Shown piece after piece: positions 3,919 through 11,263 of a stretch of DNA of 12,292 nucleotides. Source of the stretch: a virus; UHGV virus genome UHGV-0198005, one strand, 5' to 3'. The notes beneath the pieces are model-generated. The model made no database searches, had not been told where the DNA came from, and worked only from the letters and a program-made list of their open reading frames with translations. Every line of letters begins with the position of its first letter. The first letter of the stretch is position 1. Made by a program: the position numbers and the translations under genes.

Positions 3919-4218
3919 ATGAAACTTAAATATTCTGGCTTAACTGCCAGTGGCAACACTCACCCTAAATTTACGCGCGGCGATATTTACCGCGACCAGT
4001 ACGGCGGCACGGTAATGATTAAGGGCGTGGCGGGACGGTGCGTAACTTACCGCCGTGAAGGTTACGAATATGATTGCGTGATGCCTGTTTATCAGTTCCG
4101 GCGTGATTTTTCTCTGGTACAGACCGCGCCGCATAACGTGCCCACCAGCAACGCCAGGGCACGGGCAAACATCCAGAAGCTGAAAACCATGATTAACGGA
4201 TTCAGGGGTAAAAAATGA
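3919..4218 (+). CDS. Hypothetical protein (99 aa)
   Basis: ORF with GGAG upstream; stop overlaps the primase start (ATGA). Confidence 0.6.
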   Translation: MKLKYSGLTASGNTHPKFTRGDIYRDQYGGTVMIKGVAGRCVTYRREGYEYDCVMPVYQFRRDFSLVQTAPHNVPTSNARARANIQKLKTMINGFRGKK

Positions 4219-5969
4219 AACTGGCACCGAACGTAAAACAGCAGTCACGCGGCATAAAACACAAAGGAACAGAAGTCATTATTTTTGCGGGTAGTGATGC
4301 CTGGGCACACGCGAAACAATGGCAGGAACATGATGCGCGTATGGCCGGAGATAATGAGCCTCCTGTGTGGCTTGGGGAGCAGCAGTTATCAGAACTGGAT
4401 AAGCTGCAAATTGTGCCGGAAGGCAGAAAATCCGTGCGCATATTCAGGGCCGGATATCTTGCGCCAGTAATGATAAAGGCGATTGGTCAGAAGCTGGCGG
4501 CGGCAGGCGTACAGGATGCAAATTTTTACCCTGATGGTATGCACGGTCAGAAGGTGGAGAACTGGCGCGAATATCTGGCCCGTGAGCGCCAGAATCTTTC
4601 TGATGGTCTGGTCATTGAGCTTCCGGTAAAGCAAAAGGCGCAACTTTCGCAGATGGCGGACAGTGAGCGCGCGCAGCTGCTTGCCGATCGCTTTGATGGC
4701 GTTTGCGTACATCCTGAAAGTGAAATCGTTCACGTATGGCGCGGCGGGGTATGGTGTCCGGTCAGCACAATGGAACTTAGCCGCGAAATGGTGGCGATCT
4801 ATTCAGAGCACAGGGCCACTTTCAGCAAGCGCGTAATCAATAACGCCGTGGAAGCGTTAAAAGTTATTGCCGAACCAATGGGCGAGCCGTCCGGCGATTT
4901 GCTGCCGTTCGCCAATGGTGCGCTTGACCTGAAAACGGGGGAATTTTCCCCGCACACGCCGGAGAACTGGATCACCACGCACAACGGCATTGAGTACACG
5001 CCACCAGCACCAGGGGAGAACATCCGCGATAACGCGCCAAACTTTCATAAATGGCTTGAGCACGCAGCCGGAAAAGACCCGCGCAAGATGATGCGTATAT
5101 GTGCCGCGCTGTACATGATTATGGCGAACCGGTACGACTGGCAGATGTTTATTGAGGCCACCGGAGACGGCGGGAGCGGTAAAAGTACATTCACACACAT
5201 AGCCAGCCTTCTGGCAGGGAAACAAAACACGGTAAGCGCTGAAATGACATCGCTTGATGATGCTGGTGGGCGTGCGCAGGTTGTCGGGAGTCGTCTTATC
5301 GTCCTGGCAGACCAGCCGAAATATACAGGCGAAGGAACGGGCATCAAGAAAATCACGGGCGGCGACCCCGTGGAAATTAACCCGAAATATGAAAAGCGTT
5401 TTACGGCGGTAATCAGGGCGGTGGTGCTGGCAACCAATAACAATCCGATGATATTCACCGAACGGGCCGGAGGTGTGGCACGTCGTCGGGTGATATTCCG
5501 GTTCGATAACATCGTAAGCGAGGCAGAAAAAGACAGGGAGCTACCGGAAAAGATCGCGGCTGAAATCCCTGTCATTATCCGCCGCTTGCTGGCGAACTTT
5601 GCCGACCCTGAAAAGGCACGGGCTTTACTCATTGAACAGCGTGACGGTGATGAAGCACTGGCAATAAAGCAACAGACGGATCCGGTTATTGAGTTTTGCC
5701 AGTTCCTGAATTTTCTGGAGGAAGCACGCGGCCTGATGATGGGCGGCGGTGGCGATTCAGTGAAGTACACGACCAGAAACAGCCTTTACCGCGTCTATCT
5801 GGCGTTTATGGCGTACGCAGGCAGGAGCAAACCGCTAAACGTAAATGACTTTGGCAAGGCTATGAAGCCAGCCGCGAAAGTTTACGGACATGAATATATT
5901 ACGCGGAAAGTTAAAGGAGTAACGCAGACTAACGCAATAACAACAGACGATTGCGACGCGTTTTTATAA
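4215..5969 (+). CDS. Replication initiator: primase/helicase with phage-plasmid primase P4-family (D5_N-like) region and P-loop NTPase domain
   Basis: 584-aa ORF. Walker A GDGGSGKST (EATGDGGSGKSTFTHIASLLAG) and a putative Walker B LIVLAD; upstream NGALDLKTGEFSPHTPENWIT resembles the D5_N/primase-C motif. Immediately followed by an iteron array. Confidence 0.85.
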   Translation: MKLAPNVKQQSRGIKHKGTEVIIFAGSDAWAHAKQWQEHDARMAGDNEPPVWLGEQQLSELDKLQIVPEGRKSVRIFRAGYLAPVMIKAIGQKLAAAGVQDANFYPDGMHGQKVENWREYLARERQNLSDGLVIELPVKQKAQLSQMADSERAQLLADRFDGVCVHPESEIVHVWRGGVWCPVSTMELSREMVAIYSEHRATFSKRVINNAVEALKVIAEPMGEPSGDLLPFANGALDLKTGEFSPHTPENWITTHNGIEYTPPAPGENIRDNAPNFHKWLEHAAGKDPRKMMRICAALYMIMANRYDWQMFIEATGDGGSGKSTFTHIASLLAGKQNTVSAEMTSLDDAGGRAQVVGSRLIVLADQPKYTGEGTGIKKITGGDPVEINPKYEKRFTAVIRAVVLATNNNPMIFTERAGGVARRRVIFRFDNIVSEAEKDRELPEKIAAEIPVIIRRLLANFADPEKARALLIEQRDGDEALAIKQQTDPVIEFCQFLNFLEEARGLMMGGGGDSVKYTTRNSLYRVYLAFMAYAGRSKPLNVNDFGKAMKPAAKVYGHEYITRKVKGVTQTNAITTDDCDAFL

Positions 5970-5982
5970 TTTGTTGCAATGG

Positions 5983-6208
5983 CTGTCTACCCTGTCTACC
6001 TGAGTAAAGAAAAATACATTTAATTCAGTGCATTAAGTTAGGTAGATAGCCTTTTTTTACTGTCTACCCACTATCTACCCTCTCTACCTGATTTTACCTG
6101 AATCAGACAGGGAGGTAGACACGGGGTAGATAGTGGATAAAAGCACTCTACCCCGCTGAAAGCCGCGCCATTACTGGCATGAGGGCCACTAAGGTAGATA
6201 GGTAGACA
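5983..6208. repeat. Iteron-type replication origin: at least 11 copies of an 8-9 bp motif (C)TGTCTACC / GGTAGACA(G) and variants in both orientations around an AT-rich core
   Basis: Copies read directly at 5983-5991, 5992-6000, 6041-6049, 6060-6068, 6071-6079, 6081-6088, 6114-6121, 6125-6133, 6146-6155, 6193-6200, 6201-6208; AT-rich stretch 6001-6040. Placement directly 3' of the primase gene matches P4/PICI ori organisation. Confidence 0.7.
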
Positions 6209-6256
6209 AGGGGAGGCACAACTCAAAACTTTTTAAACGAGGGGGTAAAAATAAAT

Positions 6257-6535
6257 ATGCACACTTCAGGGAAATTTAATAAATCACTCAAAAAACGCAG
6301 AGACAGAACAGAACCGAAATATCGCGCGTTAGACATGACAGAGCACGCTTTAAAGGTGGCAATCAGAACGATAGACCGACACGTAGGGGAAGGATACGCG
6401 AAGGAACATCCCGACCTGATAAGCGCATTCATGACCACAGCAGCGGCAAACTTTGCCACGCTGACAGAACGGGAGATTGCCGAAGCGGAACAGGTAACAA
6501 CCATCAACGTTAAAACCGGAGAGGTGGAATCATGA
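6257..6535 (+). CDS. Hypothetical protein (92 aa), co-transcribed with ssb
   Basis: GAGGGGG ribosome-binding site ~11 nt upstream; stop overlaps the ssb start (ATGA). Confidence 0.6.
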   Translation: MHTSGKFNKSLKKRRDRTEPKYRALDMTEHALKVAIRTIDRHVGEGYAKEHPDLISAFMTTAAANFATLTEREIAEAEQVTTINVKTGEVES

Positions 6536-6954
6536 CAGCACAGATAGCCGCTTACGGGCGGCTGGTGGACGACCCGCAGGTAAAACAGACCAGCAAGGGC
6601 ACACCGATGACGCTGGCGCGTATGGCGGTCCCCCTTCCGTGCAGCCAGGCAGATGACGGAACGGCGACGATGTGGTTATCCGTCCTGGCATTTGGCAGAC
6701 AGGCCGAAGCACTGGAAAGGCACCGCAAGGGTGAACTCCTGAGCGTGGCGGGTAACATGCAGATCAGCCAGTGGACTGGGCAGAACGGAGAAACGCGGCA
6801 GGGCTGGCAGGTTATCGCAGACAGTGTAATCAGTGCGCGAACGGCGCGACTGGGCGGCAAAAAAGGTCAACAGGGCCAGGCTACTGACGCGCTGAACAGG
6901 GCAAAACAACAGGCGGGGAATGATGATCCGTACGGGGATAACATACCGTTTTAA
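6532..6954 (+). CDS. ssb: Single-stranded DNA-binding protein (SSB) homolog
   Basis: 140-aa ORF with an OB-fold-like N-terminal region, a Gly/Gln-rich linker and an acidic C-terminal tip DDPYGDNIPF, matching the conserved SSB tail (D-D-D-I-P-F in E. coli SSB, recalled). Confidence 0.8.
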   Translation: MTAQIAAYGRLVDDPQVKQTSKGTPMTLARMAVPLPCSQADDGTATMWLSVLAFGRQAEALERHRKGELLSVAGNMQISQWTGQNGETRQGWQVIADSVISARTARLGGKKGQQGQATDALNRAKQQAGNDDPYGDNIPF

Positions 6955-6968
6955 GCGACGAGTGACAG

Positions 6969-6992
6969 AAGCCGGAGCAATCCGGCTTTTTT
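6969..6992 (+). terminator. Rho-independent terminator (AAGCCGGA-GCAA-TCCGGCTT + T6)
   Basis: 8-bp stem, tetraloop and T-run 15 bp after the ssb stop. Confidence 0.65.
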
Positions 6993-7166
6993 ACGGGTCC
7001 TCCTGGCGGGGTGGGCCTGAACACGGGGCGGGAGGCGCGGAAAAAAGCGCATTTTTGTGATTTTATCGTCATCATCATCATGAGCGTAATTTATTGTTTT
7101 TAATTGTTTTGATGCAAAAAAGATGATGGTTGTGGTTAATTTTCGTTCGACATCTTTGCAGGCAGA

Positions 7167-7208
7167 TAAAAAAGCCCGATAAGGTCAGAGGTGGCTTATC
7201 GGGCTTTT
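7167..7208. terminator. Terminator-like hairpin (AGCCCGATAAG-N11-CTTATCGGGCT) flanked by an A-run and a T-run
   Basis: Perfect 11-bp stem; A6 upstream and T4 downstream make it potentially bidirectional. No adjacent CDS explains it. Confidence 0.45.
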
Positions 7209-7285
7209 GCATATGAGGCTTTTTGGTGCACTGACACACATGATCGGGATAATCATTTCATAATTTGCAACGCAACTCAACATCA

Positions 7286-7334
7286 TTGCACAAAATGCAA
7301 TCATGATTATAATCAGAGCTGGATGAACATCCAG
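7286..7334 (+). promoter_or_regulatory. Sigma70-like promoter (TTGCAC, 16 bp, TATAAT) with perfect palindrome CTGGATG-AA-CATCCAG at the predicted start site; candidate regulated head-operon promoter
   Basis: -35 at 7286-7291, -10 at 7308-7313, palindrome at 7319-7334, ribosome-binding site AAAGAGGAA at 7353-7361 before ATG 7370. Confidence 0.5.
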
Positions 7335-7369
7335 TTATGATTTTTTAAGTCAAAGAGGAATTTCTTACT

Positions 7370-7576
7370 ATGGCTGAAGAGAAAAAAGGCGGTGTTTCGG
7401 TGTACATAAGCCCCGACATCGTGAAGGCGCTCAAGGAACGCCACCAGCAGAACGTAAAAGCAGGCATTGCGGCAGGACTTGATCCGCTGGCGATGGTTGA
7501 GCCGTCAACAGGCTGGCAGGTACGCTCCTATTTACGCGCGGCGCTGGGCATAAATCAGACTCATGGGGGTGAATAA
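7370..7576 (+). CDS. Hypothetical protein (68 aa), first gene of the head operon; possibly a small RHH-like regulator or scaffold/size-determination factor
   Basis: Strong ribosome-binding site; stop overlaps the capsid gene start (TAATG). VSVYISPDIVKALKERH resembles an RHH strand-helix pattern (weak inference). Confidence 0.55.
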   Translation: MAEEKKGGVSVYISPDIVKALKERHQQNVKAGIAAGLDPLAMVEPSTGWQVRSYLRAALGINQTHGGE

Positions 7577-8631
7577 TGGCAGTCAAAGCAATGGCACTTA
7601 ACACACACCAGCTTTTCGCGTACCTGAATCGCGAGGATATTGCGGAATTTAAATTTAGTCCGCTGTTTACCGCGCTGTTTTTCCCGAACGTGGCGACATT
7701 CAACACGCAAAACATCATGCTGGATACCCTGGACATTGAAGAAGTCACCATGTCGGCGTTTTGTTCGCCTATGGTGGGTAGCCAGGTTCAGCGCGATAAA
7801 GGGTACGAAACCAGCACGATTAAACCTGGCTACATGAAGCCAAAGCACGAAATCGATCCAACGAAAACCATCATGCGCATGGCTGGAGAAGATCCGGCAC
7901 AGCTTAACGACCCTACCTATCGCCGTATGCGCCTGATTACTGGCAATATGCGCCGCCAGATAAACGCCATAAAAGCGCGCGTGGAATGGCTGGCGGTAAA
8001 TGCGGTAACGACCGGAAAAAACATCATTGAGGGCGAAGGCATAGAGCGCTATGAAATCGACTGGAAGATACCGGAAAAAAACATCATAGAGCAGGCCGAC
8101 GGGAAAAAATGGTCAGAGCAGGACAAAGAAACCCACGATCCAATCTATGATATCGAACTATACGCCGATCAGGCTGGTTGCCCCGCAAACGTCATGATTA
8201 TGGGCGTTGAGGTATGGCGAACGTTACGCAGCTTTAAAAAATTCCGTGAGCTGTACGATCTTTCCCGTGGTTCAGAGTCCGCCGCAGAGCTGGCCTGTAA
8301 AAACCTGGGCGAAGTGGTGAGCTTTAAAGGCTATCTGGGCGATATTGCCCTTATCGTCTATTCCGGCAAATACACTGACAGCGACGGCACAGAAAAATAT
8401 TTCCTTGATCCTGATTTGCTGGTCCTGGGCAACACCAACAACAAAGGGCTGGTGGCCTATGGTGCGATTATGGATCAGGAAGCGGTAAGAACAGGCGCAA
8501 CGCAAAACATGTACTACCCGAAAAACTGGATTGAGGACGGCGATCCGGCGATTGAGTACGTGCAGACGCACAGCGCACCGCAGCCGGTTCCGGCAGATAT
8601 TCGCAAATTTGTTACCGTCAAAATTGCTTAA
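7576..8631 (+). CDS. Major capsid protein, lambda gpE-like (HK97 fold)
   Basis: 351-aa ORF aligning along its length with recalled lambda gpE: FKFSPLFTALFF / FKFDPLFLRLFF; PGYMKPKHEIDP / PGYVKPKHEVNP; EDPAQLNDPTYRRMR / EDPQNLADPAYRRRR; RGSESAAELACKNLGEVVSFKGYLGDIALIVYSGKY / RGSNSELETAVKDLGKAVSYKGMYGDVAIVVYSGQY; YYPKNW..GDPA...SAP. Confidence 0.92.
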   Translation: MAVKAMALNTHQLFAYLNREDIAEFKFSPLFTALFFPNVATFNTQNIMLDTLDIEEVTMSAFCSPMVGSQVQRDKGYETSTIKPGYMKPKHEIDPTKTIMRMAGEDPAQLNDPTYRRMRLITGNMRRQINAIKARVEWLAVNAVTTGKNIIEGEGIERYEIDWKIPEKNIIEQADGKKWSEQDKETHDPIYDIELYADQAGCPANVMIMGVEVWRTLRSFKKFRELYDLSRGSESAAELACKNLGEVVSFKGYLGDIALIVYSGKYTDSDGTEKYFLDPDLLVLGNTNNKGLVAYGAIMDQEAVRTGATQNMYYPKNWIEDGDPAIEYVQTHSAPQPVPADIRKFVTVKIA

Positions 8632-8642
8632 CGGGGGATTCT

Positions 8643-8978
8643 ATGGACACTCCATACATTGAGTTATTTGCAGGCAGTCAGCAGGTATCCACGACGCTGG
8701 TACATTTTGCCGCTGATGCTGGCGTTATTCAGGAATTTACCCCGCTGATGCTGGCGGACAATGGCGAGTTTAAGCCGTGGGATGGTCAGGAATCTGGCAA
8801 GGCTGTTTATCTGACTTCGTACCTCGTGGACACGTCAAAGCAGAAATCAGCACAGTGTTACAAGACGGGGATATTCAATATTGCCGCCGTTAACTGGCCT
8901 GAGAGCGTCGACACCGATGCGAAAAAATGCGCCGCCTTTGCGGGTTCTGGCGTATCCGTTCAGCCGCTGGCCCGATAA
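8643..8978 (+). CDS. Head decoration protein, lambda gpD-like
   Basis: 111-aa ORF with TPLML, WDG, YKTGIFN...WPE and KKCAAFAGSGVSV matching recalled lambda gpD (TPLML..WDG..YKSGTF..WPE..KKRTAFAGTAISIV); similar length (~110 aa). Confidence 0.85.
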   Translation: MDTPYIELFAGSQQVSTTLVHFAADAGVIQEFTPLMLADNGEFKPWDGQESGKAVYLTSYLVDTSKQKSAQCYKTGIFNIAAVNWPESVDTDAKKCAAFAGSGVSVQPLAR

Positions 8979-8990
8979 GCAGGGGGAACG

Positions 8991-9404
8991 ATGGCAACGA
9001 ATGAAAGCATCATGGCGCTACCGCTGGCGAGTAAATTTAAAGCCGAAGCGCGGGCAATGGCTGACAGAGGTTTATCAACCTACGAGGCCGTATATCAACT
9101 CAACAAACTGGAAGAGCAGGACAAGCCGCGCGCTGATGCGATTATGGCGCTTCATGAGCATAAAGACTATCAGCCGCTGTTGCGTGCAATGGCAAACGTG
9201 CCTTGTATCGATGTTGATACGGCTAAAAACATCCTGAACATGACCATAGAGCAGGAACGCCCGAAGGTTGCACCAGAGCTTACCGCAGCCTTTGAAAACT
9301 TTATGGACATGCACAGCCCACAAACCGTATCAGCTGGCATGGCATACGATGGCAGAAACCCAGGCGATGACGGCGACATCGATCGCATACTGAAAACCAT
9401 CTGA
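8991..9404 (+). CDS. Hypothetical protein (137 aa), last gene of the head operon; lambda gpFI-like position and size but no visible similarity
   Basis: ORF with GGGGGA ribosome-binding site, followed by a terminator and the cos site. Functional guess is positional only. Confidence 0.6.
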   Translation: MATNESIMALPLASKFKAEARAMADRGLSTYEAVYQLNKLEEQDKPRADAIMALHEHKDYQPLLRAMANVPCIDVDTAKNILNMTIEQERPKVAPELTAAFENFMDMHSPQTVSAGMAYDGRNPGDDGDIDRILKTI

Positions 9405-9409
9405 GACAA

Positions 9410-9431
9410 GGCCGGAGAAATCCGGCTTTTT
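9410..9431 (+). terminator. Rho-independent terminator (GCCGGA-GAAA-TCCGGC + T6) abutting cosQ
   Basis: Stem-loop plus T-run directly after the 8991-9404 stop. Confidence 0.65.
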
Positions 9432-9432
9432 T

Positions 9433-9609
9433 GCGGGTCCTTCCTGGAATTATGGCCCGTTACGGGGCGGCGACCTCGCGGTTTTTCGCTATTTATGAGC
9501 TTTTTCAGGGGGGTGGTGGTGGTTTTGTTGTTTGCTCTATCTTTATGAATGAAAAGGGAAAGATGCAAACAATACACCAACCTGAAGCAGTAATTAAGTT
9601 GGTGTATTA
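9433..9609 (+). other. Lambda-type cohesive end site cos1 (cosQ-cosN-cosB); cosN 12-nt overhang GGGCGGCGACCT at 9465-9476; cosB diverged from lambda
   Basis: TTACGGGGCGGCGACCTCGCGGTTTTTCGCTATTTATGA matches the recalled lambda cos junction (ACGGGGCGGCGACCTCGCGGGTTTTCGCTATTTATGAAAA) almost base for base, then diverges. Lies directly upstream of the Nu1-like gene as in lambda. Confidence 0.8.
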
Positions 9610-10152
9610 ATGAAATCGCACCTGATGAACAAAAAAAACATGGCGAAAAGCTGCCGTGTAAGTGCGACAGCGTTCGACAAGTGGGGAGTGACTCCCGTTG
9701 AACGTAAAGGCCGTGAGGCGTTTTACGATGTTGCCAGCGTGATAGACAATAGGGTTAACAATGCAATTAGCCAGCTTACAAACGACAAAGGCGATATTGA
9801 TGATGATGAACTCTTACGAGTCAGGATCAGATTACTGACAGCACAGGCGGAGGCGCAGGAACTTAAAAACGAGCGCGATCGCGGTGACGTGATTGATACT
9901 GAGTTTTGCCTGTACGCGCTTTCAAAGCTGGCGAGTCAGATTTCATCAATCATGGACAGCCTCCCGCTTACTATGCAAAGGAGCTTCCCACAGATTACCC
10001 CCGCCATGCTGGATAGGCTTAAAAGGGAAGTGGTTAAAGCCTGTAATGCCAGTGCCAGAGTTGCCGACAACCTCCCACAGATACTGGCTGATTACTTGAA
10101 AGAAACAACCGGAAACGTACCGGAAAAGTTGCTACAGAAGAAAGGCGAGTAA
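9610..10152 (+). CDS. Terminase small subunit homolog, lambda Nu1-like (candidate Rpp-type packaging-redirection protein); true start may be the ATG at 9625
   Basis: LTAQAEAQELKNERDRGDVIDTEFCLYALSKLASQISSIMDSLPLTMQRSFPQ aligns with recalled lambda Nu1 LTRAQADAQELKNARDSAEVVETAFCTFVLSRIAGEIASILDGLPLSVQRRFPE; N-terminus MNKKNMAKS.. parallels Nu1 MEVNKKQLADIF. No large-terminase gene follows. Confidence 0.85.
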   Translation: MKSHLMNKKNMAKSCRVSATAFDKWGVTPVERKGREAFYDVASVIDNRVNNAISQLTNDKGDIDDDELLRVRIRLLTAQAEAQELKNERDRGDVIDTEFCLYALSKLASQISSIMDSLPLTMQRSFPQITPAMLDRLKREVVKACNASARVADNLPQILADYLKETTGNVPEKLLQKKGE

Positions 10153-10159
10153 CAGACGC

Positions 10160-10375
10160 GCAATTATTGAACAAAACTGAGAAACGACATGAAAGCGTCA
10201 TAAATCGCCATTTTAGATGATTACCGTGTCGTTTCTTTTTATTGTGTATCTATTTAAAAACAAATAGTTATGTTCGAGAAGTACCGACATGCTTTTTCCA
10301 GAAAAATTTTCATAAACAGATAAAAACCGCGAGGTCGCCGCCCCGTAACGGGTCCATAATTCCAGGAAGGACCCG
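10160..10375 (-). other. Second lambda-type cos site (cos2) in inverted orientation; cosN at 10332-10343 on the minus strand, with lambda-like cosB elements (R-site-like GAAACGACA / TGTCGTTTC, TTTATGAAAATTTT)
   Basis: Reverse complement of 10322-10375 is CGGGTCCTTCCTGGAATTATGGACCCGTTACGGGGCGGCGACCTCGCGGTTTTT, identical to cos1 apart from one indel. Continuing on the minus strand, TTTATGAAAATTTTTCTGG, CATAACTATTTGTTTTTAAATAGA and AAAGAAACGACAC...TGTCGTTTCTC parallel recalled lambda cosB (R3/I1/R2/R1 region). Confidence 0.7.
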
Positions 10376-10408: not shown

Positions 10409-10582
10409 ATGACAGAAGCCGAAATACTGGGATTAATCCGCCGTGCTGGTGGAATCAGCCAGCAGACTGACGAACAGGCCACGCAGCCGGACAGCGTGAC
10501 AGCCGAAAATTATGCGCGTGTTGTTGCTGAGGTGATGCGCCGTGATGGTATCCAGCTTAATGATGTGGATATGCGTTCTTGA
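10409..10582 (+). CDS. Hypothetical small ORF (57 aa), weakly supported
   Basis: ATG-initiated ORF below the ORF-track size cutoff with only a weak GGTG upstream; acidic, helical composition. May be a remnant. Confidence 0.25.
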   Translation: MTEAEILGLIRRAGGISQQTDEQATQPDSVTAENYARVVAEVMRRDGIQLNDVDMRS

Positions 10583-10890: not shown

Positions 10891-11263
10891 CAAAGCGCAA
10901 AATTGCGCTGGCTGGTGGGCATGATGCCGATATGGTGATCCCCATAACGGAAATATCCACCAGCACGGCAACGGCAGAATAGCCACAACACAGAAAAACC
11001 ACGAATATGGGGTTTTTGTTATGGCATGGGCATGATGACCGCCCCTGCTCTGAATGGTGGAAATCACCACGCAGATCATCCACCAGCTTCGTTTTTATAA
11101 ATTAAACATCCGGGAAAATCCGACCCTGAATTGTGCATTTTTTCAGCAAATCATTTTAGTTATACGTTTGGTTATACGGTTTAAAAGTTGAATCATATAC
11201 ATTATTTTAAATCATGAAGTTACACGCTCAATTAAACTACTCTCGTGGACCAAAAATCCCAAG

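Follow-up and report, generated by a model that had tools for sequence, protein, structure and literature searches.

A phage-type cos cassette downstream of ssb in an Escherichia coli phage-satellite island: a putative packaging site for a second class of helper phage

The island and its genes

The window (the whole stretch of 12,292 nt analysed here, virus genome UHGV-0198005) is a phage-inducible chromosomal island (PICI), a phage-satellite island of E. coli. Its plus strand carries genes for an integrase (nt 1-1242), a D5-type primase (4215-5969) and a single-stranded DNA-binding protein (ssb, 6532-6954; Pfam SSB, E = 4.9e-15, named as such in the Nissle 1917 annotation), followed by those for a gpE-like capsid protein (7576-8631), a gpD-like decoration protein (8643-8978) and a 180-aa Nu1-like small-terminase homologue (9610-10152). 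The stop codon of ssb lies just 5′ of a slot that holds the site described here, cos3.

The window matches an island of E. coli Nissle 1917 that adjoins tRNA-Pro and yejM. Over 12.3 kb, the sole difference from the Nissle 1917 sequence (CP022686) is a 17-nt deletion at 10572, which frameshifts a 93-aa ORF 3′ of cos2. A 16-mer (TTTTAGTTATACGTTT) at 11154-11169 has a second copy in locus L006, 87 nt before the point where the window begins, a spacing of 11,257 bp. It is probably the att core, and suggests an island unit of about 11.26 kb ending near 11169; the window beyond this point is a degraded autotransporter gene. Identity with the known island EcCICFT073 was considered and rejected, as EcCICFT073 adjoins phoQ in strain CFT073, has no cos3 cassette, and encodes RppA instead of the Nu1-like protein. 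The window island is a relative of EcCICFT073, not EcCICFT073 itself.

The island also carries two lambda-type cos sites. The cos1 module (9411-9505, plus strand) consists of a hairpin (9411-9432), a cosQ (9435-9441), a 20-nt spacer, ACG, the lambda-type core GGGCGGCGACCT (9465-9476) followed by CG, and then an island-specific cosB of a type ('lam-islB1') that always lies 5′ of the island's Nu1-like gene. The second, cos2 (10303-10375, core 10332-10343), is inverted. The two sites (9434-9505 and 10303-10375, each with core GGGCGGCGACCT) form an inverted repeat flanking the Nu1-like gene. The product of that gene belongs to Pfam Phage_Nu1 (E = 2.3e-23) and shows 33% identity to Nu1 of a CFT073 prophage. 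An assignment as Rpp was rejected because the protein had no PDB match, showed no similarity to EcCICFT073 RppA (144 aa), and is instead a Nu1 homologue. The island may thus supply its own small terminase instead of redirecting that of the phage. The 180-aa protein is not a member of the DUF1441 family, and no DUF1441 TerS was found among the proteins encoded in the window, so a cognate TerS for cos3, if of that family, would need to come from a helper phage.

Anatomy of the cos3 cassette

The cos3 cassette occupies 175 bp (6993-7167, plus strand) between two hairpins, its limits being evident from comparison of the window with CFT073 (L008). The first hairpin, a terminator-like module-boundary element (6962-6994; fold -18.6 kcal/mol, z = -4.7), lies 17 nt 3′ of the ssb stop. 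Its sequence, GCCGGAGCAATCCGGC followed by T6 (6971-6992), gives a stem-loop at 6971-6986 with the stem GCCGGA/TCCGGC extended by AAG/CUU, and a T-run at 6987-6992. Rho-independent terminators have this arrangement, with a GC-rich stem-loop and then a T-run where a gene ends, and termination after ssb is predicted here; the hairpin was absent from the list produced by a simple consensus-based terminator scan. It is equal to the cos1 hairpin (9411-9432) at 21 of 22 bases, and the pattern occurs twice in the window against none expected from shuffled sequences.

Immediately downstream is the cosQ heptamer GGGTCCT (6995-7001), read directly, identical to cosQ of lambda and invariant in 13 relatives of the same cos type (type A, see below); one island copy (L122) has GGGGCCT. 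A spacer of 21 nt separates cosQ from the ACG that begins cosN, compared with 20 nt in both lambda and cos1, so that cosQ stands about 20 bp upstream of the nick region, as in lambda-like cos sites generally. The cosN (7023-7040) comprises ACG (7023-7025), the core GGGCGGGAGGCG (7026-7037) and CG (7038-7039) within a following CGG, and continues with GAAAAAAGCGC to 7050. The left half of the core (GGGCGG) and both flanking CG pairs are as in lambda, and the right half is GAGGCG; the segment 7023-7039 thus has the form of a lambda-like cosN, in which the right half is free to vary (PMC4669245). Nicks are predicted between 7025 and 7026 on the top strand and between 7037 and 7038 on the bottom strand; the resulting 5′ overhang would be 12 nt long.

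Downstream of cosN lies a region (7041-7158) that is 90% identical to the interval between Rz and terS in the Stx2d phage Stx2_112808 (L001) and its relatives. It is designated type A cosB, the presumed binding region of a DUF1441-family TerS, and it keeps the blocks that are invariant in 13 relatives. A motif search identified R-like 9-mers at 7067 (plus), 7128 (minus) and 7148 (plus) around an invariant AT-rich core. The first lies in a proposed R3-like element, TCGTCATCATCATCAT (7067-7082), which begins with the 9-mer CGTCATCAT and falls in a block invariant across type-A sites. The AT-rich core, TTGTTTTTAA (7094-7103), is invariant in the type-A alignment, resembles ATGTTTTTAT of lambda, and lies at a similar distance from the nick; by analogy with I1 of lambda it is proposed to be an IHF bend site between inverted R-like elements. 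The R2-like element (7117-7135) is on the minus strand, with CATCATCTT at 7128-7120; its AAAAAGATGATG part is invariant in the 13 relatives and the remainder partly conserved. The R1-like element, TTTTCGTTCGACATCTTT (7140-7158), includes CGACATCTT from 7148 and ends where the phage homology ends. The plus-minus-plus arrangement recalls the R3-I1-R2-R1 order of lambda, and these elements are putative TerS sites.

The right border of the slot is a second hairpin (7163-7215; inverted repeat I6, fold -25.1 kcal/mol, z = -4.8), which is terminator-like on both strands and is found in all related islands examined. The next gene, beyond this terminator, is a 68-aa ORF; neither rpp nor terS is present there. 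An Rfam search of the window returned no family matches.

Relationship of cos3 to cos1

A preliminary description of this locus placed a degenerate, cos1-like module at 6957-7040, with a terminator, a cosQ-like block and a mutated cosN, and took it to be a possible decayed duplicate. The order of parts and the sequence strings it quoted are present in the window as described, and a terminase site remains a plausible reading of them. The extent was too short: the quoted text itself runs about 10 nt beyond 7040, and the module reaches approximately 7158, some 120 bp further, with a complete cosB.

The likeness to cos1 is confined to particular blocks. Besides the hairpin, cos3 and cos1 share CGGGTCC(T)TCCTGG, which includes the cosQ block, and an exact 9-mer (ACGGGGCGG) at near-equal spacing (21 versus 20 nt), so the resemblance does extend past the hairpin. 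These features would be expected of an internal duplicate of cos1 whose core had mutated, but they are also the blocks conserved in all lambda-like cos sites, the cohesive-end bp 7-12 of which vary naturally (Feiss and colleagues, PMC4669245). Over the remainder the two sites are unlike; past the hairpin, a generic local alignment gives z ~2 and global identity is 55%, compared with 90% over 165 bp (z ~94) to the cos of another lambdoid lineage. The hairpin in turn serves as a general module boundary, as the preliminary description had also suggested: in related islands it closes ssb, perC and c1501-like cassettes, and it occurs without any cos. The cohesive-end core does differ from that of cos1, but the change is confined to its right half (bp 7-12); no alteration is seen in cosQ, in the left half or in the CG pair at either nick position (PMC4669245). 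Natural variants of the core are many, and the 'mutated' one is among them. Conserved positions show no excess of changes (2 of 126 invariant columns, see below), and the closest relative of cos3 is not cos1. Descent of cos3 from cos1 by duplication and decay is therefore highly improbable.

Homologous sites in lambdoid phages

A search of phage genomes with nt 6940-7130 matched 143 of 191 bases, at 87-90% identity, to a stretch without annotation in Stx1- and Stx2-converting phages, including Stx2_112808, Stx2_95 and VT1-Sakai. Weaker matches (74-78%) fell in the cos region at the genome end of mEp460, mEp213 and mEp043. Direct alignment of 6994-7158 with the phage site gave 151 of 168 positions identical (z ~94), i.e., 90% identity over 165 bp with Stx-converting and related lambdoid phages. 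In Stx2_112808 the match sits between the endopeptidase (Rz) gene and terS, the position of cos in lambda, and the sequence directly 5′ of cosQ in this phage is also homologous to that of lambda. The gene order Rz, cos, DUF1441 terS, terL is found in L001, L002, L013 and L135; the phage TerL proteins carry GpA_ATPase and GpA_nuclease domains (lambda gpA-type) and the TerS proteins belong to Pfam DUF1441. Phages cdtI and Tritos have a sister cos type, and their sequence records end in ...CCACG and begin with GGGCGGGAGCGTCG; judged by their sequence, these records are linearised at the position equivalent to the lambda nick (...ACG|GGGCGGG...). Taken together, nt 6994-7158 probably represent a complete cos (cosQ, cosN and multi-element cosB) of the lambdoid lineage with DUF1441 TerS and gpA-type TerL that includes Stx2_112808 and VT1-Sakai.

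Among phages with DUF1441 TerS (L001, L002, L013, L022, L023, L135 and others), the predicted core between ACG and CGGAAAAA is 12, 13 or 14 nt long, so the overhang length would differ between close relatives if the nicks are placed as above. The middle of the core also varies in sequence from phage to phage.

A P2/P4-type cos was dropped once the 165-bp phage match appeared; the cohesive end of P2/P4 is GGCGAGGCGGGGAAAGCAC, and the core plus A-run of cos3 is slightly similar to it. Record ON470578 (16 kb) was rejected as a satellite sequenced from virions, being only a partial phage genome, and the start of record mEp460_4F5 was rejected as evidence of the nick since it is not at the nick. 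Among species-representative genomes, a scan for the hairpin-plus-cos pattern gave no matches, and 85 were obtained with the core pattern; most of these are in unrelated taxa and due to chance, and plausible ones were seen only in Escherichia and perhaps Pectobacterium.

Conservation of the type-A cassette

IMG/VR was scanned for the core pattern, and the 120 stretches obtained were pooled with annotated records for comparison of type-A sites. The type-A cassette was found in three contexts: in phages; in an island slot directly 5′ of terS, after a different hairpin; and in the island slot after the ssb hairpin. The boundaries are the same in all three, running from a T-run plus CGGGTCCT through GTTCGACATCTTT, and phage flanking sequence is absent on both sides of cos3.

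With the 13 type-A copies outside the ssb slot as reference, changes in cos3 affect two of the 126 invariant columns (7105 and 7144) and 12 of the 39 variable ones (Fisher p = 4e-7). Position 7144 is C in the window copy and T in every other copy, and 7105 has T in place of G. In a leave-one-out comparison, cos3 differs from the consensus at 14 of 166 positions (range 3-18) and has two private changes (range 0-5). Its conservation equals that of the copies in phages, it is an ordinary member of the type-A set, and the preliminary description of the site as degenerate is not supported. The exact core GGGCGGGAGGCG, with A at bp 8, was seen in island copies only, the nearest phage core being GGGCGGGCGGCG. 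A test for selection on the island copies was uninformative, as the whole ssb-cos3 block is near-identical among islands and divergence is mosaic; the little divergence that cos3 shows among islands is shared by this wider block and is silent on selection on cos3 itself.

The cassette is identical in 60 genomes, among them the probiotic strain Nissle 1917 and the reference strain ATCC 25922. No second type-A site was found in 59 of the 60, many of which are duplicate assemblies of a small number of strains (Nissle 1917, ATCC 25922), or strains derived from them, and so are not independent; these 59 therefore have no resident cognate prophage.

The ssb slot and cos types across islands

Comparison with CFT073 (L008) shows homology to the window stopping at 6860 and resuming at 7168. 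EcCICFT073 lacks the cos3 cassette, and its order is the ssb region, perC, the same hairpin, six bases (GCGCCC) and the second hairpin. In L008, L010 and L011, copies of the first hairpin are found after ssb, after perC and after another cassette. The ssb slot is empty in L011, and in L008 and L010 it holds perC and other small genes, each ended by the same hairpin. Because each cassette ends in a copy of this hairpin, the slot behaves as a cassette array. The PerC-family regulator genes and small ORFs lie at 24960-25208 of L008 (EcCICFT073) and at 4454-5077 of L010 (O103/O157 islands).

Other islands carry other cos types in the same position: the cdtI/Tritos type in L009, L113, L054 and L019, the mEp460 type in L033, L037 and L064, and type C in L036, L056, L063, L100 and L127. 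At least four cos types are therefore found in the ssb slot across island lineages, each trimmed to cosQ through cosB. The order seen in the window, with a type-A site, a lambda-type cos1 and an inverted cos2, recurs in L006, L012, L024 and L122, so the triplication noted in the preliminary description is present in relatives. The inverted position holds an mEp460-type cos in L026, L092 and L118, showing that this third slot is also exchangeable. L019 was considered as a circular island contig, but no terminal redundancy was found.

Neighbouring cos sites within one element differ in cosB type in 20 of the 20 loci with two or more cos, and there is a one-to-one correspondence between cosB type and the first 60 residues of the downstream TerS (type A 7/7, type C 7/7, cdtI type 21/21, island Nu1-like 8/8, RppA 2/2), the sampled sequences being related by descent, so that counts among copies or loci are not independent. 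This pairing fits distinct packaging specificities.

In the sister island L009, a fused ClpP-protease/capsid gene and a DUF1441 terS (7086-9742) replace the genes for gpE, gpD and Nu1. This island parallels the head genes of mEp460/Gifsy-like phages, and the cos types it carries are those of the same phages.

Comparison with known packaging sites

The cos of lambda, which is recognised by the gpNu1/gpA terminase, has the same cosQ (GGGTCCT) as cos3, CG pairs at both nicks (inferred in cos3) 12 nt apart, and a downstream multi-block region that the proposed inverted R-like repeats round an AT-rich core in cos3 recall. As in the phage homologues of cos3, it lies between the lysis genes and terS and is used by a gpA-type TerL. 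It differs from cos3 at five of six positions of the core's right half, in its 20-nt rather than 21-nt spacer, and in its small terminase (Nu1 versus DUF1441 for cos3), and the cosB of cos3 has no sequence similarity to the lambda R sites.

According to the accessible text of the reports on EcCICFT073 (Fillol-Salom 2018, PMC6092414; 2019, PMC6739421) and of a review (Murialdo and Feiss 2022, PMC9026076), the cosN of cos1 and cos2 in that island is identical to that of lambda, and their cosB is specific to the island, lacks phage R sites and is read by Rpp bound to the phage TerS. The window island belongs to the same Gram-negative PICI family (int, primase, ssb, gpE-like, gpD-like), likewise has more than one cos site, and carries the same hairpin 5′ of cos1. 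A site of the Rpp-dependent class has a lambda-identical cosN, an island-specific cosB and rpp directly 3′; cos3, in contrast, has a different right half of cosN, a phage-identical cosB, no adjacent rpp or terS, and a location in the slot after ssb. On sequence grounds, cos3 belongs to the lambda-like cos family but lies outside the class of PICI cos sites of the Rpp type. The accessible text of PMC6092414, PMC6739421 and PMC9026076 makes no mention of a cos that follows ssb and is identical to that of a phage.

In SaPIbov5-type islands the helper's cos is copied, so that the unmodified helper terminase packages the island (summarised in PMC6092414), a strategy that cos3 would share. Those islands differ in being Gram-positive, in depending on HNH-dependent cos phages and in having unrelated sequences; the window, unlike them, has a second packaging system (cos1 plus its own Nu1-like protein) for another phage group.

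The direct sequence homologues of cos3 are the cos sites of phages with DUF1441 TerS (Stx2_112808, VT1-Sakai/Sp15, mEp460, cdtI, Tritos, mEp213/LLS). Those of type A show about 90% identity across the whole cassette, with the same boundaries; the differences are the A at bp 8, unseen in the sampled phages, and the absence of a downstream terS in the island copy. No experimental work on cos sites of DUF1441-TerS phages was found in the searchable literature, in which the mEp213/LLS cos is described as putative (PMC12315714). Literature searches on the cos3 core sequences, the DUF1441 terminase and the Nissle PICI returned nothing relevant.

A putative role for cos3 in packaging by a second class of helper phage

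The favoured reading is that cos3 is a functional cos serving a second helper-phage class (probability about 0.6). What was observed is the homology to phage cos, the completeness of the cassette, its pattern of conservation, the architecture of the slot and the pairing of cosB with TerS; from these we infer that cos3 could support cleavage, packaging and transfer. When a type-A phage grows in a cell carrying the island, its unmodified TerS would bind the phage-identical cosB of cos3, and TerL would nick at ACG|GGGCGGGAGGCG|CG. Island concatemers (units of ~11.3 kb) would then be packaged rightwards into phage heads, at about four units per 45-46-kb head, and the next cos3, with its cosQ, would end the packaging run. 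The other two sites, cos1 and cos2, with their lambda-type cosN and island-specific cosB, would serve lambda-type helpers by way of the island's own Nu1-like protein. The island thus appears to be equipped for packaging by terminases of two or more specificities.

Several observations sit less easily with a working cos. The exact core is known only from island copies, there are private changes at 7144 and 7105, no cognate prophage is present in the 59 genomes noted above, and EcCICFT073 transfers well with lambda and phi80 although it has no such cassette (PMC6092414). All of these would also be explained if the cassette were a passive relic, gained by recombination with a type-A phage or another island and intact only because it is recent, and the near-identity of the ssb-cos3 block among otherwise diverged islands fits a recent exchange. 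A relic without a role is nevertheless unlikely: repeated neutral gain at one position would hardly deliver at least four cos types to the same slot, each trimmed to cosQ through cosB; the cassette has no phage flanks on either side; and the substitutions in cos3 follow the constraint seen in phages.

It is also conceivable that the site acts on terminase without starting packaging. As a sink, a multicopy island cosB would soak up type-A terminase and hamper the helper, and a phage-identical cosB should indeed compete for TerS. As an extra stop site, its cosQ and left cosN half would halt a lambda-type terminase that had begun at cos1, altering the packaged length; the orientation of cos3, the same as that of cos1 and 2.44 kb upstream of it, is compatible with this. 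A packaging run starting at cos1 and ending at cos3, however, would have cohesive ends mismatched at 5 of 12 positions, and a site that is bound and cut by terminase would also start packaging, making interference largely an added effect rather than an alternative. A role as sink or stop site instead of initiation site is rated somewhat less probable even than the relic, and below the working cos for a second helper class.

More generally, islands of this family may have as many as three fixed slots for exchangeable cos cassettes (after ssb; before terS or rpp; and, inverted, after terS or rpp), each cassette within one island matching a different terminase specificity, so that several unrelated lambdoid helpers could package one island. 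This wider proposal is put forward tentatively, its odds being a little under even.

The present account of cos-packaged Gram-negative islands involves a single mechanism, in which an island-specific cosB is recognised by a complex of Rpp and phage TerS. A second, helper-identical cos of another terminase specificity would mean that islands broaden their helper range by collecting cos cassettes. Why some islands carry two different cos sites is a question raised in the accessible text of the EcCICFT073 papers and the Murialdo and Feiss review, and if the reading is correct it could be addressed directly by plasmid transduction, an assay that has already been applied to EcCICFT073. The closest relatives of the cassette are cos sites of Shiga-toxin-converting phages, which bears on whether such phages move the island or are hindered by it; the island of Nissle 1917 and ATCC 25922 could, if cos3 works as proposed, be mobilised by Stx-type phages and compete with them.

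Other features of the island

Between the primase gene and the next ORF (5975-6215) are several direct and inverted copies of CTGTCTACC / GGTAGATAG, which look like replication-origin iterons. The region 5′ of the capsid operon (7225-7346) contains a perfect TATAAT with a weak -35 and repeated TTGCAA/ATGCAA motifs, and a hairpin with a T-run (7317-7346) directly follows the TATAAT promoter, a layout kept in related islands. This promoter-then-terminator arrangement recalls pR′-tR′ of lambda, and a helper antiterminator might act on it.
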